From: a plasmid
Reading direction: 5' to 3' (one strand)
DNA length: 64,000 bases
Assembly: GCF_056712565.1 (NCBI RefSeq)
Contig: NZ_JBWXXM010000004.1
In this document: positions 6,160 to 59,350 of the stretch, piece by piece
How positions within the stretch are numbered: position 1 is the first letter of the stretch
Layout: every line of letters begins with the position of its first letter
Position numbers and translations under genes: made by a program
The notes under the pieces: model-generated
What the model was told of the DNA's origin: nothing
The model's input: the letters and a program-made list of their open reading frames with translations, nothing else
Databases searched by the model: none

Positions 6160-6176
6160 ATTGCTCTAATGTATTG
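6160..6176 (+). promoter_or_regulatory. C1 operator-like 17-mer upstream of lpa-position gene
   Basis: attgctctaatgtattg, 13/17 to the P1 C1 operator consensus ATTGCTCTAATAAATTT. Confidence 0.4.
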
Positions 6177-9486: not shown

Positions 9487-10338
9487 CTATTGCGCGCTTT
9501 CGGGGTTGTCGTTTACTGGCTGCCCTTTCTTAGTTTTACGGCTGCGCGTAACTGATGCGGCTGATTTGACCTTTTTCTCTTCGCGAGTGATGGCAATTTG
9601 TTTTTTTACATTTTCAATATCTGCCAGGCGATATATTTTTGCCTGCGGCCAGCGGTCGCAGATGATCGGTTCTATAGAGTCATAAAGGCTAAATTTTGCT
9701 TTCTCGAATTCACCGTTGATGATAATTCCATCACGGAGAGTTTCATCGCAGATAAACACACCACATAGCGGCACATGGTAACTAACTGATTTACCATCAT
9801 TGTAGTTAGGGCTACTAGAAATGTAATGGACGCGCAGCATTGTTTCGCTAAAGCCGTGTACGCGCATACGGAATTTTTCATCCTCCGGGTACTGCTTCAT
9901 TAGCTCTTTTGTTGCTTCCAGGTTCTCTATGTATTTCGCACTGTGCTCATTGATCCCTGCGCTTTTCTGGATGCGAATGTCCTTATCAATCAGATGAATA
10001 ATGCGGCCAGCGGTCATGTTGACGCTGTTCACAGCTTCTGTCTGATAAGTCGTAACCTTACGCACACCGCGAAGGATGTTAGGTACTGGATATAAAATAG
10101 TCTTTGGGATATTGAGGTCTGGGTACTGTTCCAGTTCCCGCGCCATTAAAGTCCATTTATCAATTTCAGCCTGAATGCTGTCAGTTTCTTTGAACGGCAG
10201 AACGACAACCGGGCGTACAGGACGACCGTCGCTGGCGGCATCAACGTGTTGGGCGCGTGCAACAGCTTTTTTTAGAAAGAGATCCCTGAAGCTGACGAAC
10301 TCCTGGTACAGTTGTTCGCCGTAGACATAATTTATCAT
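9487..10338 (-). CDS. c1: C1 repressor of lysogeny
   Basis: 283-aa product (length of P1 C1); convergent with pacB, downstream of coi, operators nearby. Confidence 0.85.
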   Translation of the reverse strand: MINYVYGEQLYQEFVSFRDLFLKKAVARAQHVDAASDGRPVRPVVVLPFKETDSIQAEIDKWTLMARELEQYPDLNIPKTILYPVPNILRGVRKVTTYQTEAVNSVNMTAGRIIHLIDKDIRIQKSAGINEHSAKYIENLEATKELMKQYPEDEKFRMRVHGFSETMLRVHYISSSPNYNDGKSVSYHVPLCGVFICDETLRDGIIINGEFEKAKFSLYDSIEPIICDRWPQAKIYRLADIENVKKQIAITREEKKVKSAASVTRSRKTKKGQPVNDNPESAQ

Positions 10339-10403: not shown

Positions 10404-10448
10404 CCATTATAGAAGGATCCAACGAAAATAATAGATTTATTAGTGCAT

Positions 10449-10658
10449 TTATTGTGAGTCTGGCTGGTTAGTGGCCATGAGATATTCGATTGTGTCAGTG
10501 AGATCATCCAGGTCGTCTTGGGTGATGCGGTACTCCTGATTGGATATCTTTGAGTAGTGTTCAGCAATGGCGCGGGCAGCGTCGGTTTCGGCGGGGTCTA
10601 CAGATAAAGCGTTAGAGCAATGTCTAACGTCGTCGATGGTTGGTGGAATGAAAGCCAT
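10449..10658 (-). CDS. coi: Coi, C1 inactivator
   Basis: 69-aa product directly upstream of c1 on the same strand. Confidence 0.75.
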   Translation of the reverse strand: MAFIPPTIDDVRHCSNALSVDPAETDAARAIAEHYSKISNQEYRITQDDLDDLTDTIEYLMATNQPDSQ

Positions 10659-10896: not shown

Positions 10897-10913
10897 TAAT
10901 TTATTAGAGCAAT
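10897..10913 (-). promoter_or_regulatory. C1 operator (Op99-type) upstream of coi-c1
   Basis: Plus strand taatttattagagcaat; reverse complement matches ATTGCTCTAATAAATT(A), 16/17. Confidence 0.55.
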
Positions 10914-10979: not shown

Positions 10980-10996
10980 ATTGCTCTAATAATTCT
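10980..10996 (+). promoter_or_regulatory. C1 operator-like 17-mer
   Basis: attgctctaataattct, 15/17 to consensus. Confidence 0.5.
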
Positions 10997-46305: not shown

Positions 46306-49300
46306 TCAACTCTCGCGTAGTCATTCATCAACGGATCATCAATTGACAGTGGCACCGTGCGCATAACGCCCGGTTGAGGCGTGCTGACCTTTACGACAGT
46401 TCCCTGGCCTTTCGCCGAGTCTTTAGTGTGCTCTTCAATCCTGGCAAGCAATGAGGTCATCTGCGCAAACAGCCGCTTCGTTTCACCATCAAGTGAAACG
46501 GTATTATCAGCCAACTGCATTGTCGGCTTGGCACCGGAGCCGCCAAGGTCACTAATAACCTGTCCGTCTATCTGCATACGACCGGTTGGTTGCTGCAAAT
46601 CGTTGGCGGCAGTCGTCACCTGGGACGTGGAGGCTGGTTCAGGCGCATTATTTTTCCGCATCCCCGGCGAGTTGCGGAGTTTATCAAATAGTCCATCAAT
46701 CCCCATTTGTGCGCCGAGTTGGTCAAAGTAACTTGAGTTGCTGGCCACCGGACGCGCCTCTTCAACTGGCATCTGAGTATCAACATACACATTGCCAGCT
46801 GCTGTTGCGGTCCCCTTCCCTCGTGCACGTTCTTCGAGCGTTCCCTGAACGACTTCCCGACGCATACCCCGGCCATTCATGAATTTGTTGACCAGATCGT
46901 TAACGCCAACAGCATTGCCAATTTTGTCTACCAGACCGCCTTTCTCAAACGGGCTATCACCAGGGGTAAACGCCAGGCCAGTAGACTGATCGATAACAGC
47001 GTTATCAGGCAGTGGTCCCCTCACTCCATATTGCGCCCCACCCTGTGCTCCTGCTCCAGGTGTATAGATTTCACCACCTAAATAGCGAGCACGATGAGTA
47101 TTGACCTTGATCGCGTACTCACGGTTTTCTTTCGATAAGTCACCTGTGCCTTTTTTCCACTTATTAATAGTGCCAAACCCAGCGTTATATGCAGTGATGG
47201 CCTCGTTTAAGTCTCCATTGGCTTGCTTCAGATACTTGCTCATGAGAAGAGCCGCAGCTTCTGCCGATTTTTCCGGATTAAAAGAATCTTCCCGGGATAA
47301 TCCAGTTTCCTCACGAGCAACGCGCGTAAACTGGAACATCCCGAGTGCGCCACCACTTAACTTTCCATCTGGTGATCTTGTAAGCGGAGACTTTGCGTTA
47401 GGATCCCCTCCTGATTCAGTTGCAGCAATCGCGTAAAGAGTGCCTTCAGGAAGACCATATTTATTCTCTAGTTCAGCAAAATACGGAGCTAACTTATCGA
47501 GATTTGCCTTACCTTCAGCGCCAAGGCTTCCGACTTTTACATCTAAGTTGCCATTATTGTAGGTATCAGCAGCTTTCTGAATGTCATTCCCAGTGCCGGT
47601 GGTATTACGCGACGATGATGACGAGCTATTTTGTCCAATAGCTGAATCAATTTTCCGCACCGCGCTATTGCCCATTTCTACGGCATTTGCATTGATAATC
47701 TGATTGGCAGTTTCTTTAACTGTTTTATTGCTATCTTTCGCCGTGTCCAGTGCCGCATTTATCACGCGGGTAGCAATATTAGTCTGTTTAGCATCGGATT
47801 CAGTTTTAGAATCAGATGTCTCCTGGTGGCTATTAACCGGAGCTTTTAACTCTGGAGTGATTTCTTTTGCATTAGCCTCGCCGATCGGATTGGGTATTTT
47901 TGATACAATCATTGCCGCAGGGGTATTTTTAACGGCATCAACCGCTGCATCTAATGCTTTACCGGGTAAATTTTTAACCCCATCCCAAATATTACCAGCC
48001 GCCTCTTTAATGTGTTTCCCTGGGTTCTTAATGAAGTCAATTGCACTATCAATTGCATCACTGAAAACCTGTTTCAGGTTATCGACAGTAAAGAAGTCTT
48101 TGATGGCATCCAGCTTTTCAAGCAACTTATTAGATGTATCGCTAAACCATGCTGAAACAGCATCACCAATCTTTGCTGTGTAATCATCGAACTTGGTAGA
48201 AATGGTGTCGCCAAGGTTAGAAATATATGTTTCTAAGTTGGTAACCCCGCTATCAATGGCCTGGGCAATACTTTCCGTCGAAAATGATTGCAACATATTG
48301 CCGATATCCTCAAATCCAAGTGATTTGAGAACATCACCAATAGCACTGCTAATACCAGATACCAGTCCCCCCAAATCAAGAACATTGGCTAACGTATAAG
48401 CGGCTTTTTGCTGGAATGATGGATCTTGTCCTGATTTAAGCCCAAACGCTCGACGTTGCGCTTCTGTATCATTCCAACCGGTTACCGCATCATAAATACC
48501 TCCAGCCACTGTGCCGACTAGGGGAATTGCGCGTAACGCCCCTTTACCAACTGCCTTTAATCCAAGTTTACCTGCTGCCCGGGCAGCCAAATCTCCGCCT
48601 TCATGGGCGAGAGTCTTCTTGCCCCCACCGCGTAGCATTCCTACGAGTCTCTTTGCCCCCAGAGCGCCAAAAGCGAGTGCTCCAGCTTTTTTCAGCATGC
48701 CACGCCCCATTAACAACGACGCGACGCCACCGGCCCCCTTCCCTAACAGGCTAAATAGTTTAGACAGCAAGCCGCCCTTCTTTTTCCCGGTGTTTTTGGC
48801 TATCTGATCAAGGGCGCTGAGAATCTTGTCATTGCCCTCTTTAATTTCGCTGGTCTGCTCCTGAAGTTCCTGAACCGTCCGTTTTTGGGTGTTAACCTGA
48901 ACGACATCGGCACTATTTTGCGATTTACGCCTAAAAAAACCTTTTCTACGGCTGTTATCGTCATTGCCACGAATCACATCGGCAATAGACTTTCTGGCAC
49001 CATTAAGCGATCCACCAACTTCTTTTGATATCCCGCCAAGCTCCTTCCCTGCTGCCCACAATGGACCAGCAACAGCATAACCTAACGCATCGACGGCACG
49101 AGTCTCTGAAGGGTTACCTATGCCTTCAGCTACTTTTGACAGTTTTTTTAATAAACCTGATTCAGCATTTAGACGCTCATCATCCTCTTTGCGCCTGGCC
49201 TTTTCAGCACGTTCAGCACGGGCATCTTCCGCTGCGGCCTTACTCCCTGACTTTCCAATAAAACGACCACGCGCATCGCGTTGGTTTTGGCTTTTTTGCG

Positions 49301-49724
49301 CACCGCCTTTTTGACCGAACATTTCGCGAGCGTGTTCGGCTGCTTCGGTCCGTTGCGCCTTTACATCTTCTGTTATAGCCTTCTTGCGTCGTTTTTTACC
49401 CTTTCGCGTAGTTGATTTGGCCTGCGGTTCCTGTAGAGCAACATCCTCCTGAACTACACGAGAAACGTCCCCTAAATTAAGCCGTTTCATTGCCTCAACA
49501 ATAGGGTCCACTGATGGCGCATTGGCCACAAAGTCTGGCCGGGAATTTTCGATTGTGCGATTTAATGCCGACACACTGCGAGAGACAGGATCAACAGTTG
49601 CAACGCGTCCCCCTTTCAAATCTTCAACAGCTTCCCGGATACCTGCAAGCTCTTCCAGCTCTTTTGCGCTGGCGGTTTCAACCGTCCTTATCACATCGTC
49701 AATGTTGGCGTTTTTTCTTTCCAT
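46302..49724 (-). CDS. sit: Sit, tape-measure-like structural injection transglycosylase
   Basis: 1140-aa product (length of P1 Sit); soluble lytic transglycosylase motif AIAATESGGDPNAKSPLTRSPDGKLSGGALGMFQF; Ala/Gly/Lys-rich repetitive N-terminal half. Confidence 0.75.
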   Translation of the reverse strand: MERKNANIDDVIRTVETASAKELEELAGIREAVEDLKGGRVATVDPVSRSVSALNRTIENSRPDFVANAPSVDPIVEAMKRLNLGDVSRVVQEDVALQEPQAKSTTRKGKKRRKKAITEDVKAQRTEAAEHAREMFGQKGGAQKSQNQRDARGRFIGKSGSKAAAEDARAERAEKARRKEDDERLNAESGLLKKLSKVAEGIGNPSETRAVDALGYAVAGPLWAAGKELGGISKEVGGSLNGARKSIADVIRGNDDNSRRKGFFRRKSQNSADVVQVNTQKRTVQELQEQTSEIKEGNDKILSALDQIAKNTGKKKGGLLSKLFSLLGKGAGGVASLLMGRGMLKKAGALAFGALGAKRLVGMLRGGGKKTLAHEGGDLAARAAGKLGLKAVGKGALRAIPLVGTVAGGIYDAVTGWNDTEAQRRAFGLKSGQDPSFQQKAAYTLANVLDLGGLVSGISSAIGDVLKSLGFEDIGNMLQSFSTESIAQAIDSGVTNLETYISNLGDTISTKFDDYTAKIGDAVSAWFSDTSNKLLEKLDAIKDFFTVDNLKQVFSDAIDSAIDFIKNPGKHIKEAAGNIWDGVKNLPGKALDAAVDAVKNTPAAMIVSKIPNPIGEANAKEITPELKAPVNSHQETSDSKTESDAKQTNIATRVINAALDTAKDSNKTVKETANQIINANAVEMGNSAVRKIDSAIGQNSSSSSSRNTTGTGNDIQKAADTYNNGNLDVKVGSLGAEGKANLDKLAPYFAELENKYGLPEGTLYAIAATESGGDPNAKSPLTRSPDGKLSGGALGMFQFTRVAREETGLSREDSFNPEKSAEAAALLMSKYLKQANGDLNEAITAYNAGFGTINKWKKGTGDLSKENREYAIKVNTHRARYLGGEIYTPGAGAQGGAQYGVRGPLPDNAVIDQSTGLAFTPGDSPFEKGGLVDKIGNAVGVNDLVNKFMNGRGMRREVVQGTLEERARGKGTATAAGNVYVDTQMPVEEARPVASNSSYFDQLGAQMGIDGLFDKLRNSPGMRKNNAPEPASTSQVTTAANDLQQPTGRMQIDGQVISDLGGSGAKPTMQLADNTVSLDGETKRLFAQMTSLLARIEEHTKDSAKGQGTVVKVSTPQPGVMRTVPLSIDDPLMNDYARVD

Positions 49725-49805
49725 GATCTTATCGCCTACCGCTTCGGTTTAAGTTTTTCTTCCAGTTTCTCCAACAGGAAAAACGCATAGGATTCAGTGA
49801 GCCTT

Positions 49806-51914: not shown

Positions 51915-52043
51915 TTACCCGATTCTACGAGTTGTCATTTGTTACCGGTCAGTCTACACATTTCAGATGCTGCGTTAAAAAACCCAAGTACTTCAAGTAG
52001 CACATCGTCATCAACACCCAGCCCCAAGATACGGTGATAAAAT

Positions 52044-53078
52044 TCAAGCCTTAAGAGGCTTTGTGTATGTTCGTGTAATCCATCCAGTAATAAACTCGTC
52101 CCCTGATTTAACCTGCACGAAAAGCCATTGGCGATCTTTTTTATCTAAAACAGCCACTATAGTATTTTTGCCAATGCATTCAATCACCTCACTATTTATA
52201 GAAGGACTGACGTGTAATCTTACGTTCTCACCAGTTATAAAACGAAAACCATTGAGATCTTCCCAACTAATTTCTTTGTTTTCTTTAATTAATTGTTGTT
52301 TTGATATTGGTTTATCCTCAAACAGAGATATAAAATATGATTCTGCCTTGTGTATTCCCAGCAAGGTTTTCTCTTTTCCGTAATCAATAAAAGCACCAAA
52401 CACAACTTGAGAAAATATAACCATTAGTAACCATTGCAGTGGATAAGGAAGCTCTTTAAATGAATCAACAAACTTTGAGCTAGGTTTATTTAATCCTTTA
52501 TTTTGAACATTACTTTTGGTGTGTGATGTTTCAGTAGCACCTTCAGCATAAGCCTGCGCAATAGATGAAATCCCCTGCTCTATTATTTGATGTAATGAAG
52601 CATTTCTTGTTCTAGCATAGTGATCTAGTACTTTCTTTATGTCTTGGCTTACATCTATTTTATAACTTGCACTTTGTTGTAATTCTTTAAGTATCGCTTG
52701 CATGTTATTTAAACCAGCTTGCTTATTAAGCACCTCAAGCTGTTTTCGTAATGGCATAGCTATTTCGGCCTGTTTCCTTAGCATTTGAATATATCTATTT
52801 GCATCATGAGGGAAAAGAGCCTGAGTCTGTTTCTGTAAAATCGCGATATGTTCACGATACTTGCTGCCTATTCCAGCCAAGTTCGGTATACTAGCCAATT
52901 GTTTTCGAAGAGAGTTACTAATTACAGCTTGTCTATTCAATCTTGGCATATTTTGAAAAGAATGTTTTTCTATTCCTAATTGTTTTTGCAAGATCGCTAC
53001 GTGATCTTTGTATGATGGAATGAGCACTGACTGTTTATACAGCAACTTCAACTCATTAGAATTAGTAATTTTTGTCAT
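52044..53078 (-). CDS. membrane-anchored protein with N-terminal ILQKQ-type repeats and C-terminal SH3-like domain (sim-position cluster)
   Basis: 344-aa; repeats HVAILQKQ / HIAILQKQ / LRKQ; TM segment LPYPLQWLLMVIFSQVVFGAFIDYG; C-terminal GENVRLHVSPSINSEVIECIGKNTIVAVLDKKDRQWLFVQVKSGDEFITGWITRTY; AT-rich codon usage. Confidence 0.5.
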   Translation of the reverse strand: MTKITNSNELKLLYKQSVLIPSYKDHVAILQKQLGIEKHSFQNMPRLNRQAVISNSLRKQLASIPNLAGIGSKYREHIAILQKQTQALFPHDANRYIQMLRKQAEIAMPLRKQLEVLNKQAGLNNMQAILKELQQSASYKIDVSQDIKKVLDHYARTRNASLHQIIEQGISSIAQAYAEGATETSHTKSNVQNKGLNKPSSKFVDSFKELPYPLQWLLMVIFSQVVFGAFIDYGKEKTLLGIHKAESYFISLFEDKPISKQQLIKENKEISWEDLNGFRFITGENVRLHVSPSINSEVIECIGKNTIVAVLDKKDRQWLFVQVKSGDEFITGWITRTYTKPLKA

Positions 53079-53152
53079 ATTATTCCATTTCTATAATAGA
53101 ATATTACGCAACCAATGTTTTATTGATTGCGTTAATCTTTAACACAGAAAGA

Positions 53153-53629
53153 TCATTTGCCTCGTTTAATACATCCATCCATTTTGGCTTGTTGATACAA
53201 CTTACTTAGCCCAGAAAGAGGGAATGTAGCAATTTTTTCATTATCAACATAAGCATCAATCATATTAGCATTTGAATCTGCTGCATCTTGCCAAAAGGCA
53301 TACCACCAAGAATCTCCAACCATTGATCCAAGATTGCTAAAAGGATATTGATCACCATCTATAGTTAATACTATTTTATTCTTGTCAGCATTATACTCTT
53401 TTTTATTATTCGACGAACTTAGCAACAAGCCTAAACTACCTGCACTATCTGGTGAACCATACATGAATCCCATATCACATAAAAAACTTATCTTATCACC
53501 ATTATGATTATGGATTGTATATTCTCTCCCCCCTCTCTCTTCAATTACATTCCATTGTAGAGGATCAATTTTTGCAAATGTTCCTGCTGAAACTAACGAT
53601 ACAAATAATAAAAACCATCTCATATTCAT
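53153..53629 (-). CDS. secreted/periplasmic protein with signal peptide (sim-position cluster)
   Basis: N-terminus MNMRWFLLFVSLVSAGTFAKIDP (n-h-c signal peptide with AxA-like cleavage context). Confidence 0.5.
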   Translation of the reverse strand: MNMRWFLLFVSLVSAGTFAKIDPLQWNVIEERGGREYTIHNHNGDKISFLCDMGFMYGSPDSAGSLGLLLSSSNNKKEYNADKNKIVLTIDGDQYPFSNLGSMVGDSWWYAFWQDAADSNANMIDAYVDNEKIATFPLSGLSKLYQQAKMDGCIKRGK

Positions 53630-53651
53630 TCTTTTCGCTTCTTATCTGTAA

Positions 53652-54002
53652 TTATTCTGCAATATCATTTGCCCATTGCACGGCAGCAAAATGAGTACCC
53701 AAACCACTCAGGAAAGCAATTACCCCCAAAACAATACTTGCTGCTGTTGATTCAAACAAAGTACCAATACTATAGCCAATAGCTCCCCATACTAAGCTAA
53801 ATACAATCATCAATGGTATTGCTAGAAATTTTATTCTTAAACTAAAAATCAGTCCAAGAAAAGAACCGCCAAAGGCCCACCATGATTTAGACATTAAACC
53901 TATCAGTATTGACAGAATTCCTATTTCAATAAAGAGAATATTAGATTGCTCTTCATTGAATTTCGCATTTGTTACACCTTTACGAACATGTTCAGATGAC
54001 AT
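53652..54002 (-). CDS. small polytopic membrane protein (sim-position cluster)
   Basis: 116-aa, three hydrophobic helices (ILFIEIGILSILIGLM, FLGLIFSLRIKFLAIPLMIVFSLVWGAIGY, AASIVLGVIAFLSGLG). Confidence 0.45.
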   Translation of the reverse strand: MSSEHVRKGVTNAKFNEEQSNILFIEIGILSILIGLMSKSWWAFGGSFLGLIFSLRIKFLAIPLMIVFSLVWGAIGYSIGTLFESTAASIVLGVIAFLSGLGTHFAAVQWANDIAE

Positions 54003-54148
54003 GATTAACTATCTCCTGCCACAGATAAAACGCCTTAAAATAACATTTTGTAGCATAAAGTTTCACCATGCAATGGTCAAAATCTTTGACCCATATCAAT
54101 TAAACTCATACATTTTAGTTACCAGAGAAATAATTTACATGGTTGCAA

Positions 54149-54165
54149 GTTGCTCTAATTATTTT
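54149..54165 (+). promoter_or_regulatory. C1 operator-like 17-mer in the promoter region of the sim-position cluster
   Basis: gttgctctaattatttt, 14/17. Confidence 0.4.
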
Positions 54166-54292
54166 ATTTTTTTAGCTTCATATGCTACATTAACTTGCTT
54201 GCGTGCTAATGCATTTTCGGTTTATCCTAAACAGGCATCTTAGTAAAACGGATGCCGGGATTGGAACCCCGGATAATGCAAAAGGCGACATA

Positions 54293-54314
54293 GACGCCAA
54301 AAGCGTCTTTTTTT
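54293..54314 (+). terminator. intrinsic terminator on the plus strand with no protein gene upstream
   Basis: gacgc caaaa gcgtc followed by T7. Confidence 0.5.
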
Positions 54315-54717
54315 GTGTCATGCCATCGCACAACCATACGTAGCACATAGCTCCGAGATCAATGGTAGTGCTGGCTGGGCTGCCGAAAGGCAGGCCGGTT
54401 CCCTTTTGCGCCGGTAGTTCCAACCCAGTCAGTGCTACCGCCATTGAGATTGGAACCTCACGCGGTAGCTCCTTAAATTAGCAAAAGGAGGCTGCCATTG
54501 TGGCTACTATCCCTACCCCTACTCATCCTGAATTTATCTGGCGCTTTTACTCCTGCCAAAAACACCACTATCACTTCGTTATCGCAGCAACAGAAGACGA
54601 AGCACGCTCTCAATTGCCTGATGGCCCCTGCATTTTTACTGCCCGTTTTTCAACTAACTCGCGCAATTCACTTAGTTACTGGAGCCTCCCCTTCTCTGCC
54701 GACGTTCAGGGGGGTTT

Positions 54718-55755
54718 ATGAAAACACCTCTCGTCACCCGTAATGAAATAGCCGAAGCGATCGCCTTGCATACTGCCTGTATGCCGACACGGGAGATCCC
54801 CGGCGCAATTGCTAACTATTTCATGATAACCAGACGTTTTTATACCCGAACAGATAAGGCTGTGATCAACAGGCTACTGATAGCCGAGATCAGGGATTAT
54901 TTGATTGAACAAGGACGTCTACGTTACGCAACAGTGGCAGCAGAAATGAGAAAGGAGGCACATAGAATGACCGGTAATAATTTAAATGTTGAAAAAACAG
55001 CACCTGTTGCTTCAGCTACGCCATCACCAGCTGTGAATGTTATCTCCAACACTGGAGACACAATCGACAGCCAGACACTGTTAAAGATGGTCAATGAAGC
55101 GCGTAAGTTATGTGGGGAACCAGAGGTTCGGAACAACAAATTCATCGAAAAAATACTCGATGAGCTTGATGGTGAGCACTACACAAAAAGTGTAGTGGAA
55201 AAAATGAACAAAACATCAATGCTTGTCATAACCATGACTTTCAAACAAGCCCTGCGAGTCGCCGCGCGCGAGTCAAAAGCGGTCCGCCGTTCGCTGATCG
55301 ACAAACTGGAAGAATTACAGCAGGCAAACTCCCCTACCCCATCGATCCCCCAGACATTACCAGAAGCCCTACGCCTGGCTGCCGAGTTAGCAGAACAGAA
55401 AATGCAGTTGGAACAACAGCTGGTGGCCGCAGCCCCTAAAGTCGATTTTGCCGACCGGGTATCAGTGGCCAATGGAATCCTGATCGGGAACTTTGCAAAG
55501 GTCGTTGGACTTAAGCAAAACGCCCTTTTCTCATGGTTGCGCCAGAACGGCATTCTCATGGCTTTTGGTGCGCGCAAAAACGTACCGCGCCAGCAGTACA
55601 TTAACGCCGGGTATTTCACGGTGAAAGAAGTGGTGCTGGATGATGAAAATGGCTACCAGATACGGCTGACGCCCCAATTAACGGGTAAAGGCCAGCAGTG
55701 GTTAACTCGCAAGCTACTTGATGCTGGTTTGTTAAAACCAGTAGCAATAGGTTAA
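54718..55755 (+). CDS. KilAC-domain antirepressor-like protein (rlfA-position)
   Basis: 345-aa; C-terminal 130 aa (PQTLPEALRLAAELAEQK...GKGQQWLTRKLLDAGLL) paralogous to the C-terminus of the next gene; GGGG-ATG start context. Confidence 0.55.
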   Translation: MKTPLVTRNEIAEAIALHTACMPTREIPGAIANYFMITRRFYTRTDKAVINRLLIAEIRDYLIEQGRLRYATVAAEMRKEAHRMTGNNLNVEKTAPVASATPSPAVNVISNTGDTIDSQTLLKMVNEARKLCGEPEVRNNKFIEKILDELDGEHYTKSVVEKMNKTSMLVITMTFKQALRVAARESKAVRRSLIDKLEELQQANSPTPSIPQTLPEALRLAAELAEQKMQLEQQLVAAAPKVDFADRVSVANGILIGNFAKVVGLKQNALFSWLRQNGILMAFGARKNVPRQQYINAGYFTVKEVVLDDENGYQIRLTPQLTGKGQQWLTRKLLDAGLLKPVAIG

Positions 55756-55776
55756 CAAAAGAAAAAACCTGCCAGC

Positions 55777-55800
55777 AAACTGGCAGGTTTCTGAGCAGAT
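55777..55800 (+). terminator. intrinsic terminator after rlfA-position gene
   Basis: A6 cctgccag caaa ctggcagg tttctg. Confidence 0.65.
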
Positions 55801-55832
55801 CGTCCAACCCGATCTGGATCGGGTCAGAAAAA

Positions 55833-55849
55833 TTTGCTCTAATAAATTT
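55833..55849 (+). promoter_or_regulatory. C1 operator upstream of rlfB-position gene
   Basis: tttgctctaataaattt, 16/17 to consensus. Confidence 0.55.
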
Positions 55850-55918
55850 CGTTTTCTAAGTGCAAAGAATCACCTTTTCGAGCTGGTGATTGAAGGTTGA
55901 TGCAAATTTGGAGAAAAA

Positions 55919-56719
55919 ATGCAACAAACATTCAATGCGGATATGAATATATCAAACCTTCATCAAAATGTCGATCCTTCAACCACTCTGCCTGTTATTT
56001 GTGGTGTTGAAATTACGACCGACCGCGCTGGCCGTTACAACCTTAATGCTCTACACAGAGCGAGCGGACTCGGTGCCCATAAAGCGCCAGCTCAATGGCT
56101 AAGAACGCTGTCAGCCAAACAGCTTATCGAAGAGCTTGAAAAAGAAACTATGCAGAATTGCATAGTTTCGTTCGAAGGCCGTGGCGGCGGTACGTTTGCC
56201 CATGAATTGCTCGCTGTGGAGTACGCAGGCTGGATTTCTCCCGCGTTTCGGCTGAAGGTAAACCAGACATTTATCGACTATCGAGCCGGAAGATTACAAC
56301 CTGCTATTCCGCAGAGTCTCCCTGAAGCTCTCCGTTTGGCTGCCGACCTGGCAGAGCAAAAGCAACGGCTGGAGCAAAAAATGCTTATGGATGCGCCTAA
56401 AGTCGAATTCGCCGAACGCGTTGCTACCGCCAGCGGGGTTCTAATCGGCAACTATGCCAAAGTGCTCGGCCTGGGCCAAAACTATCTCTTCACCTGGTTG
56501 CGTGATAACGGAATTCTGATCGCAACCGGTGAACGCAGGAACGTCCCCAAACAAGAATACATATCCCGTGGGTATTTCACCCTTAAAGAAACCGTGATCG
56601 ATACAAGCAATGGAAGCAGGATTTCTTTCACGACTCGTATAACCGGCAAAGGTCAGCAGTGGCTGATGAAGCGATTGCTTGATGCTGGTGTGCTGGTACC
56701 TGTCGCGGCAACGCGCTAA
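55919..56719 (+). CDS. KilA-N / KilAC antirepressor-like protein (rlfB-position)
   Basis: 266-aa; N-terminal KilA-N-like region (GRYNLNALHRASGLGAHKAPAQWLRT) plus KilAC-like C-terminus shared with the preceding gene. Confidence 0.55.
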   Translation: MQQTFNADMNISNLHQNVDPSTTLPVICGVEITTDRAGRYNLNALHRASGLGAHKAPAQWLRTLSAKQLIEELEKETMQNCIVSFEGRGGGTFAHELLAVEYAGWISPAFRLKVNQTFIDYRAGRLQPAIPQSLPEALRLAADLAEQKQRLEQKMLMDAPKVEFAERVATASGVLIGNYAKVLGLGQNYLFTWLRDNGILIATGERRNVPKQEYISRGYFTLKETVIDTSNGSRISFTTRITGKGQQWLMKRLLDAGVLVPVAATR

Positions 56720-56748
56720 CAGACGTAGTAAGAACCACCAGCATTGTA

Positions 56749-57594
56749 ATGCTGGCTAAAGTCACTTTCCTGAGCTGTATAACGATGAGCGATTTTACTT
56801 TTTCTGGCTATGAATTGGCCTGCTTTGTAACACACTCCGGTCTATCTCGTAGCGCCGGGCATATCCTGTCGCAATGTGCAAATCTAGCGGCAACAACCAG
56901 TGAATACTTCATTCACAAGCCTCACCGCCTGATCGCGGCAGAAACTGGTTATAGCCAATCAACCGTCGTTCGTGCATTCCGTGAAGCTGTAAACAAAGGA
57001 ATTCTGTCTGTAGAGATTGTTATCGGCGATCACCATGAACGTCGTGCTAACCTGTACCGGTTTACACCATCCTTTTTGGCCTTCGCACAACAAGCCAAAA
57101 ATGCGCTGATTGAAAGCAAATTAAAGATCTCTTCAGCGGCAACCAAGGTTAAAGCTGTTCTCGCTAAGACATTGGCTTTATTTAATTTTTTATCCACACC
57201 CCCATGTCAAAATGATACCCCCTCCCCCTGTCAGGATGACGTGGCAATAAAGAATAAGAAGTCACAAGTTAAAAAAACAAAAAGATCAGTTTCCGGCGGT
57301 GCCGGAACGACCAGACTCAAAAAATTGACTTCATGGATCGCTGAGGTAAAAGCAAAGGCTGACAATCTGCGGTTATCCAAAAAACGCGCTCAAAAACATG
57401 AGTTCAAGCAGAAAGTAGAGGCGGCAGCGCGGAAATATGCTTACCTGAAGAACAAGCGTTCTCCTGATATTGGCGGGGTATCAAACTTCGATAATCTGCC
57501 GCATTGCATGACGGTAAACGAAGCTCTTAATGCGGTTTTAGCCAAAAATAAAGATAACGAACAATGGGGTATACCGGCAGGATTCAGAGGGTGA
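56749..57594 (+). CDS. putative DNA-binding protein with N-terminal winged-helix/HTH (pmgF-position)
   Basis: 281-aa; HTH-like GYSQSTVVRAFREAVNKGIL; Lys-rich C-terminal half. Confidence 0.4.
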   Translation: MLAKVTFLSCITMSDFTFSGYELACFVTHSGLSRSAGHILSQCANLAATTSEYFIHKPHRLIAAETGYSQSTVVRAFREAVNKGILSVEIVIGDHHERRANLYRFTPSFLAFAQQAKNALIESKLKISSAATKVKAVLAKTLALFNFLSTPPCQNDTPSPCQDDVAIKNKKSQVKKTKRSVSGGAGTTRLKKLTSWIAEVKAKADNLRLSKKRAQKHEFKQKVEAAARKYAYLKNKRSPDIGGVSNFDNLPHCMTVNEALNAVLAKNKDNEQWGIPAGFRG

Positions 57595-57890
57595 TAGATT
57601 GCTCTAATCTGGAGTCACCTGGCGTTTTCAGTTTGAGGTCGGAGATGCAATCTGATTTTTTACAGTTAGCGATCGCTTTTGCAGGATATGTTTGTATTGG
57701 CTTCTGTGTATACATGATCAGCCGAAAAATGCTTGTCGATATCGACCGCAAAGAACGAGCAGAGGAGATCTTAGTATGGATTTTCTTTGGCGCGGTCTGG
57801 CCATTAGGGATCATGTTTGCTGCTACATTTCTTCTGATGTGGATATTCACCCTTCCAGGTGATTTCTATAGAAAAAAAGCCAGACATTGA
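57564..57890 (+). CDS. small membrane protein (probable true start ATG 57645), preceded by an ATTGCTCTAAT operator half-match at 57598
   Basis: MQSDFLQLAIAFAGYVCIGFCVYMI...WIFFGAVWPLGIMFAATFLLMWIF: two or three TM helices. Confidence 0.4.
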   Translation: MGYTGRIQRVIDCSNLESPGVFSLRSEMQSDFLQLAIAFAGYVCIGFCVYMISRKMLVDIDRKERAEEILVWIFFGAVWPLGIMFAATFLLMWIFTLPGDFYRKKARH

Positions 57891-58072
57891 TACAATCGTT
57901 GCGGGTGCTTGAGGCTATCTGCTTCAGGCATTACCCGAAAAGCAGATAGAAGAAAGCCCCAGATAACATTACGCGTCCTGCAAGACGCTTAACATTAATC
58001 TGAGGCCATATCTATGCTTAGCATACGTAGATTAACCCTCTCCCATTTTAAGGAGCAAGGAATTTTTTACTG

Positions 58073-58705
58073 CTATGCCGCATTTCCAATTATGGATTCA
58101 GCGACCAGAACAACCCCATGCTTACTTCGATCTGGGTGTTCACTCCATATCTCGGATTCAGGAATACTTACCCCGTCATAGCAAACACGTTCGCCGTCAA
58201 ACGGGTAATACTGAGCGGCATCGGTGTCGAGGATAAACACTTTTAGCTCGGAAGAGCGACGGGCGATATGTTGCCAAAGAGCTTTTCCACCTTCGTATTG
58301 CTCATTATCACTGAGCAAAACAACACCAGCTTTTGAGGCTACGGTTTCGTAAACAAAAGTAGCTAAACCGACATCCCGGACAGTTCCATCAACCACGATA
58401 CCTTCAATCTGGGCAACATCGCTATCCTCCCAGAACTTCCTTACCAGTACGCCTTCAAGCTGCGGGCGACGTTGAAGTTCAAGAGTAGCGACAACCTTAT
58501 GCCGCATATCACCATCGATAACAGAAGGCGCAGCCTCTATTACAGCTGCAAATGGGGTTTTGGAATCCCATATAACCTGGTAAAGCACACCCTGGATGGT
58601 AACTCCGTCCAGGATCGAAAATCGACGAGCGACAGTACCCGGGGAGTACGACATTGGAATCACAGCCATTTTAGAGTCCCCCTTTAACAGTACAGGCACA
58701 AACAT
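58073..58705 (-). CDS. hypothetical structural-block protein (210 aa)
   Basis: ORF track; AT-rich promoter-like region upstream. Confidence 0.35.
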   Translation of the reverse strand: MFVPVLLKGDSKMAVIPMSYSPGTVARRFSILDGVTIQGVLYQVIWDSKTPFAAVIEAAPSVIDGDMRHKVVATLELQRRPQLEGVLVRKFWEDSDVAQIEGIVVDGTVRDVGLATFVYETVASKAGVVLLSDNEQYEGGKALWQHIARRSSELKVFILDTDAAQYYPFDGERVCYDGVSIPESEIWSEHPDRSKHGVVLVAESIIGNAA

Positions 58706-58800
58706 CTACCTCAATAATTGTAGTTTATTAGAACATTAATAATCTAACATAAAACTCCAGACAATGTTATCGATGCATGTTTATATAAAATAGTTATAAA

Positions 58801-58822
58801 AAAAGCTCCCGAAGGAGCTTTA
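58801..58822 (-). terminator. bidirectional intrinsic terminator
   Basis: A7 agctcc cgaa ggagct ttaaaa; on the minus strand the hairpin is followed by T7. Confidence 0.65.
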
Positions 58823-58840
58823 AAATACAAGGGATGACTC

Positions 58841-59350
58841 TTAATCCCACTCAATCCAGTTGTAGACGATACGAAGTGACGGGCGCACAGCGGCAGTCAC
58901 ATCTTCGGTACTAAAGTCGATTGCATCACTGTAGATTTTGCAGTCCAACATTTCAATTGTTGTAGCAGCTTTTGTTACAGCGTTAACCCCGGAAGATTTG
59001 GATTCAGGGGTAGCAGCCATCGTGATATCAACATAGTCCTTCGCCGCAATGCGATCCTTGATGAACTGAAGAATATCGCCTTCGATAGTCTCCACGCACT
59101 GGACCTGGATTTCCCCAGAGTTTCGAATTGGTCCGTGCTGGTTGAACTTCACACCATTCGGACCATAGTCCTCCACATCCTCGCGGGTCATTTCAGGAAT
59201 TTGCGACGTGCGAACCAGTACGCTGATATCTTCATGGCCTGCAAAAGTGAGCTGGAATTCAGAAGATACCAGTCGTTCGCCTTTGGCCGCGTTGGCAGTA
59301 TAGCGGCCCTTAATAAATTTACGGTTTCCCTTAGTGTTATTGTGCCCCAT
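58841..59350 (-). CDS. tail/baseplate structural protein (169 aa)
   Basis: ORF track; synteny with P1 bplB/pmgG/21 block. Confidence 0.35.
   Translation of the reverse strand: MGHNNTKGNRKFIKGRYTANAAKGERLVSSEFQLTFAGHEDISVLVRTSQIPEMTREDVEDYGPNGVKFNQHGPIRNSGEIQVQCVETIEGDILQFIKDRIAAKDYVDITMAATPESKSSGVNAVTKAATTIEMLDCKIYSDAIDFSTEDVTAAVRPSLRIVYNWIEWD

Follow-up and report, generated by a model that had tools for sequence, protein, structure and literature searches.

The two genes at 54718–56719 are almost certainly ant1/ant2 and kilA of a P1-type plasmid prophage, placed in two adjacent operons of the lysis-lysogeny switch. They lie in a 64,000-nucleotide stretch of plasmid DNA (contig NZ_JBWXXM010000004.1, assembly GCF_056712565.1), which we call the window and to which all coordinates refer. 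Gene 1 corresponds to the ORF at 54718–55755 (+ strand, 345 amino acids) and gene 2 to the ORF at 55919–56719 (+ strand, 266 amino acids). The original prediction gave exactly these ORF limits and described tandem genes with a common C-terminal domain, without recognizing the pair as the classical ant1/ant2 and kilA of phage P1. Mapping of the regulation of the P1 genes dates back to the late 1980s. Their promoter, operator, and antisense control was determined experimentally and is annotated in GenBank AF234172. The pair, its domains, and its operator are all already known; these are the prototype genes of their families, and nothing in them is new. The observation is correct and ordinary, with little weight as a discovery. 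Its value lies in showing that the window is a P1-type phage-plasmid whose C1/C4/Ant immunity circuit and lytic replicon are intact, and in serving as a positive control in which domains and operator were read correctly from raw sequence.

A megablast search with window 54400–57000 matched P1, P7, SJ46, RCS47, and others at 96–98% identity, with 95% of the query covered. The features in the matching records are annotated icd, ant1, ant2, kilA, and repL, with only the 5' part of repL inside the matches because the query ended at 57000. The stretch that is 96–98% identical to P1, P7, SJ46, RCS47, JL22, and Ro157c2 runs from 54527 to 57000. When window 52000–59000 was searched, four E. coli plasmids of approximately 95–100 kb matched at 100%, and 820 plasmid records contained a match. 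Because of these matches to P1 relatives and E. coli plasmids, the window reads as a P1-like phage-plasmid. In the two nucleotide searches, the closest relatives of both genes were all inside P1-like elements, with none outside.

The product of kilA (55919–56719, + strand) is identical to P1 KilA at 265 of its 266 residues, with the sole change at position 123. In its AlphaFold model, a KilA-N domain (residues 27–123) is followed by a long helix (approximately 134–170) and a KilAC core (approximately 174–256); a sequence search of the PDB returned no match for the protein. The P53 promoter (PkilA) is located at 55798–55843 on the + strand, with a −35 hexamer TGGATC at 55815–55820 and a −10 hexamer TCTAAT at 55838–55843, base-for-base as in P1. 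Three Dam GATC sites (55798, 55811, and 55817), again as in P1, are placed in its −35 region. The original prediction placed the second gene behind a near-consensus C1 operator, and this is indeed Op53 (OrepL) at 55833–55849 (+ strand). The 17-bp operator, TTTGCTCTAATAAATTT, overlaps the P53 −10 hexamer, is identical to P1 Op53, and has a single mismatch to the consensus ATTGCTCTAATAAATTT. Only two differences separate the whole ant-kilA spacer from that of P1, an indel and a substitution, and neither touches the P53 hexamers, Op53, or a Dam site.

The antisense promoter P53as (PaskilA; 55946–55974, − strand; TCGACA-17-TATATT) is at its P1 position, inside kilA at the 5' end. With 10/12 matches and an extended TG, it is the top promoter-like site found by a promoter scan of 54000–57000. 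A terminator scan also identified a 13-bp, G+C-rich, perfect hairpin between ant and kilA at 55763–55792, whose 13 pairs lead into a T-rich tail on the − strand. A/T-rich runs lie on either side of the hairpin, and P1 has it too, differing by an indel of one base in the A-run next to the stem. The distance to the annotated antisense start is approximately 175 nt, and transcription could end here in both directions, for ant (+ strand) and for the antisense RNA from P53as (− strand). Directly after kilA, as in P1, is repL (56749–57594, + strand), the second gene of the kilA operon, which encodes the lytic replication initiator and contains oriL. Its ORF of 281 amino acids equals the length of P1 RepL. 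The window thus has the promoter, operator, Dam sites, antisense promoter, and kilA-repL order in common with the P1 lytic replicon. In P1, kilA-repL is controlled by P53/Op53 (PMC9948254), and KilA is lethal on expression yet dispensable for replication or plaque formation (PMC9948254, PMC10695390). A CRISPRi screen that also provides functional annotations for P1 found ant1/2 and kilA to be non-essential (PMC10695390).

The repressor that would act at Op53 and Op51 is encoded by c1 at 9490–10338 (− strand), which was located by tblastn with P1 C1 (99.6% identity over residues 1–283). Allowing ≤3 mismatches, there are 10 C1 operator matches in the window vs 0.21 expected from shuffles, an enrichment of approximately 50-fold. 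One of these, GTTGCTCTAATTATTTT at 54149–54165 (+ strand; 3 mismatches to the consensus), is an Op51/Oc4-type operator upstream of the immI (c4-icd-ant) operon and aligns with the annotated P1 operator Oc4. Gene 1 thus also appears to be under C1 control, indirectly through this Op51-type operator, as well as under C4 antisense RNA control. Near c1 itself, a cluster of operators at 10433–10449, 10897–10913, and 10980–10996 corresponds to the P1 immC region. Further matches are found at 6160, 12541, 13017, 23207, and 27056.

Downstream of the Op51-type operator, the immI leader (54235–54313, + strand) matches the Rfam family isrK (RF01394) at 58.3 bits vs a gathering score of 50. The leader carries decoy C4 target sites a1 (54261–54267) and b1 (54278–54285), which are complementary to the C4 loops, and it ends in a short hairpin and T-run at 54292–54308. 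It is followed by the C4 antisense RNA, the repressor of icd/ant translation, at 54358–54445 (+ strand; Rfam C4 RF01695, full length, 76.7 bits, E 2.4e-14), here as a non-P1 allele. The C4 loops at 54402–54409 and 54417–54423 are complementary to the b and a sites, respectively. The second set of target sites, a2 (54450–54456, TTGGAAC) and b2 (54481–54488, GCAAAAGG), spans 54450–54488 on the + strand with exact complementarity to C4. Site b2 overlaps the icd Shine-Dalgarno, and the a2/b2 layout is as annotated in P1. The cell-division inhibitor gene icd (54500–54721, + strand, 73 amino acids) was identified by NCBIfam phage_ICD_like (E 3e-14) and aligns with P1 icd. The icd stop codon and the ant1 start codon share bases in the sequence ATGA. 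The roles of C4, Icd, and Ant have been described for P1 (PMC8201110).

Compared to P1 immI, the control module of the window (54149–54527), comprising the operator, leader, C4 RNA, and first icd codons, is a different allele. Similarity to P1 starts inside icd near 54527, and upstream of this point the closest phage is D6 at 84%. This pattern points to a recombination breakpoint inside icd near 54527, joining a non-P1 control module to P1-type icd/ant. When the window was aligned with P1, D6, and Ro157c2, the loops of C4 proved to co-vary with both pairs of target sites (a1/a2 and b1/b2) through compensatory changes. The window has the a allele TTGGAAC with the b allele GCAAAAGG, and D6 has TTGAGAC with the same b allele as the window. 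The a and b alleles are TTGACAG and GTTAGTG in P1 and TTAGCAG and GATTGTG in Ro157c2. Such co-varied loops and targets are the expected signature of distinct immI specificities, which suggests that the specificity of the window is distinct as well.

The antirepressor gene ant1 (54718–55755, + strand) encodes a 345-residue Ant1 with a specific N-terminus, a central module at approximately 107–204, and a KilAC domain at 232–334. The protein is 94% identical over its full length to P1 Ant1 (AAQ14019) and belongs to PHROG 63, ‘anti-repressor Ant’ (E 1.8e-104). Nested within it is ant2 (54967–55755, + strand, 262 amino acids), which begins at an in-frame internal start, Met84. The ant2 ATG at 54967 is preceded 8 nt upstream by AGGAGG (54953–54958), at the position of the annotated P1 ant2. 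In the P1 record AF234172, ant1 spans 48688–49731 and ant2 48937–49731, with the ant2 start in frame 249 nt into ant1. The place after c4-icd, the ATGA overlap with icd, the AGGAGG-led Ant2 start, and the KilAC C-terminus are all common to the window and P1. However, the window Ant1 has 345 amino acids whereas P1 Ant1 has 347, and a patch of 11–13 residues at Ant 159–169 (DNA approximately 55190–55225) has diverged from P1 between nearly identical flanks. The patch reads VVEKMNKT--SML in the window vs AKSHGTRAGRSFE in P1. In the AlphaFold model it falls in a predicted β-hairpin (‘wing’) of the central module, where homologues vary most. The patch may be a product of recombination or a determinant of specificity. 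Given the non-P1 immI control module and the diverged Ant patch, the quantitative behavior of the switch could differ from that of P1.

The anatomy of the switch was read from the window itself. For its functional steps, including C1 binding by Ant, the lethality of KilA for the host, the silencing of P53 through Op53, and the action of the antisense RNAs, we relied on published P1 experiments as given in the AF234172 annotation, PMC9948254, PMC8201110, and PMC10695390. In this arrangement, ant1, with ant2 nested inside it, closes the immI operon c4-icd-ant. C4 antisense RNA, cut from the same immI transcript in a lysogen, would pair with a2 and b2 and cover the icd ribosome-binding site. Because ant1 translation would be coupled to the C4-blocked icd through the ATGA overlap, no Ant should be made. 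The other operon, kilA-repL, is the lytic replicon operon with kilA as its first gene. C1 bound to Op53 would block P53 and silence kilA because the promoter overlaps the operator, so that neither KilA nor RepL is made, and antisense RNA from P53as inside kilA would damp leaky transcription. When C4 control is overcome, the Ant1/Ant2 complex would bind C1 non-covalently and strip it from its operators; in the GenBank annotation of P1 (AF234172), this complex binds and inactivates the C1 repressor. Upon loss of C1, P53 would fire and RepL would start replication from oriL, with the host-lethal KilA presumably contributing to host shut-down.

The proteins of the pair are most alike at their C-termini. 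BLASTP of the whole products gave 50% identity over approximately 200 amino acids (E 3e-66), and the domain of about 130 residues that the original prediction had reported is an ungapped block of 136 residues with 65% identity (Ant 207–342, KilA 127–262). The motifs it had quoted, PQ(T/S)LPEALRLAA(E/D)LAEQK and GKGQQWL..LLDAG.L.P, are all present. The block contains a Pfam ANT/KilAC domain (PF03374, gathering score 25.3 bits) in both proteins, at residues 232–334 of Ant1 (106.4 bits, E 1.2e-30) and 152–254 of KilA (112.2 bits, E 2e-32). The predicted KilA-N-like N-terminus was likewise borne out, in the second protein only, by Pfam KilA-N (PF04383, gathering score 23.8 bits) at KilA residues 27–123 (75.4 bits, E 3.7e-21). 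The proposed Pfam check thus returned both domains, rather than the absence of KilA/Ant hits that had been named as evidence against the prediction. KilAC is the name used in Pfam's own description of PF03374, and P1 KilA is the protein that gave the KilAC and KilA-N domains their names. The window proteins do not differ from these families, of which they are prototype members. No NCBIfam model matched Ant, KilA, or RepL.

In the database, KilAC is fused to KilA-N, to pRha (PF09669), or to an Ant-type N-terminus, and this variety documents domain shuffling directly. Ant and KilA have KilAC in common through old shuffling of domains among antirepressor-type proteins of phages. There is a weak resemblance between the KilAC core and winged helices of the MerR/Xis type. 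A similar layout, with a variable N-terminal module joined to KilA-C, is found in Gp07 of staphylococcal phage Phi11 (Bro-N and KilA-C). Gp07 is likened to the window proteins here by domain layout, and it differs from them in its Bro-N N-terminus and Gram-positive host. Its overexpression inhibits growth, an effect that the KilA-C domain keeps (PMC5944126).

PHROG profiles and a database search showed that residues approximately 107–204 of Ant make up a shuffled module of their own. In proteins of approximately 220–230 amino acids from Enterobacterales and Arsenophonus, it is joined either to KilAC or to C-termini that are unrelated. The AlphaFold model of the module (pLDDT 86) has the order β-α-α-β-β-α-α, a predicted fold that weakly resembles winged-helix/APSES-like domains. 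Foldseek found nothing in the PDB at E ≤ 0.001 for this model, and a profile of the module had no match among PDB sequences. Pfam searches at E up to 10 with the N-terminal 215 residues of Ant and with Ant2 residues 1–132 gave only noise (Kinesin_assoc, Imm68). Profile-profile comparison by hhalign yielded E 0.16 against KilA-N. Against a Rha-type N-domain alignment built from pRha+KilAC proteins, it yielded E 0.026 at a probability of 1.9%, with an alignment confined to the C-terminal half, though in the register expected. These values do not demonstrate sequence-level homology of the module to Rha or KilA-N. The idea that Ant carries a KilA-N domain was rejected, and only a weak fold resemblance was kept. 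The statement that the N-terminal parts of the two proteins differ was therefore kept, although they may have a distant fold in common.

The likeness of the two proteins allows other readings of the pair. The adjacency of the genes on the same strand, with 3' halves that are alike, could signify a recent tandem duplication or an assembly artefact instead of two distinct functional genes. However, the N-terminal parts differ, both ORFs are intact, and the pair is kept in P1, P7, SJ46, RCS47, and hundreds of plasmids. The DNA of the common block is only 62% identical, and because its longest identical run is 12 nt, the likeness appears to come from an old duplication or shuffle and not a recent repeat. 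This DNA divergence, together with conservation of the pair across P1 relatives and plasmids, refutes the duplication or artefact, to which we assign a negligible chance. Greater, though still slim, is the chance that, as the original prediction suggested on general grounds, the two genes work chiefly in trans, inactivating the foreign repressors of other prophages in the cell. Antirepressors of the Gifsy phages, among others, act across prophages, and the joining of KilAC to at least three different N-terminal modules (KilA-N, pRha, and Ant-type) suggests diversified specificity. Conversely, the element encodes its own cognate repressor and operators, and both genes are built into the P1 circuits for immunity and lytic replication. 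The C1 repressors of P1 and P7 are targets of P1 Ant, which is not known to cross-react beyond this near-identical pair.

Two further readings concern the function of KilA. With 65% identity between the KilAC domains over the 136 ungapped residues, and with KilAC proteins generally annotated as antirepressors, KilA could be a second antirepressor that binds C1 through the domain it has in common with Ant, with host killing as a side effect. We regard this as unlikely, if the least so of the alternatives. If true, C1-repressed kilA would create a positive feedback loop that locks lytic commitment. A more extensive version is somewhat more doubtful. It holds that Ant2 and KilA are full-length paralogues, each an APSES/KilA-N-like winged-helix module joined to KilAC, and that KilA is a C1-repressed second antirepressor; it adds, as a separate point, that the C4 RNA/target pair of the window defines an immI specificity distinct from P1, D6, and Ro157c2. 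A second antirepressor of this kind would give a feed-forward loop, with the KilA made upon removal of C1 by Ant going on to displace still more C1. The preferred reading remains the P1-type switch, with Ant1/Ant2 as the antirepressor and KilA as the host-lethal product of the lytic replicon operon, and no result of the analysis speaks against this identification.

The regions on both sides of the switch also differ from P1. At window 52044–54002 (− strand), three unrelated ORFs take the place of P1 simABC. They encode 344 amino acids with a weak SH3_3 match, 158 amino acids with an N-terminus that appears signal-peptide-like by eye, and 116 amino acids that appear hydrophobic by eye; the 158- and 116-residue products matched no Pfam family. 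On the 3' side of repL, P1 has rlfA/rlfB, whereas the window has a 108-residue ORF and a sok RNA. The ORF, at 57564–57890 where rlfA/rlfB are absent, encodes a hydrophobic protein, and the sok antitoxin RNA at 57903–58077 is full-length (RF01794, 97 bits). The presence of the two together implies a hok/sok-type addiction module.
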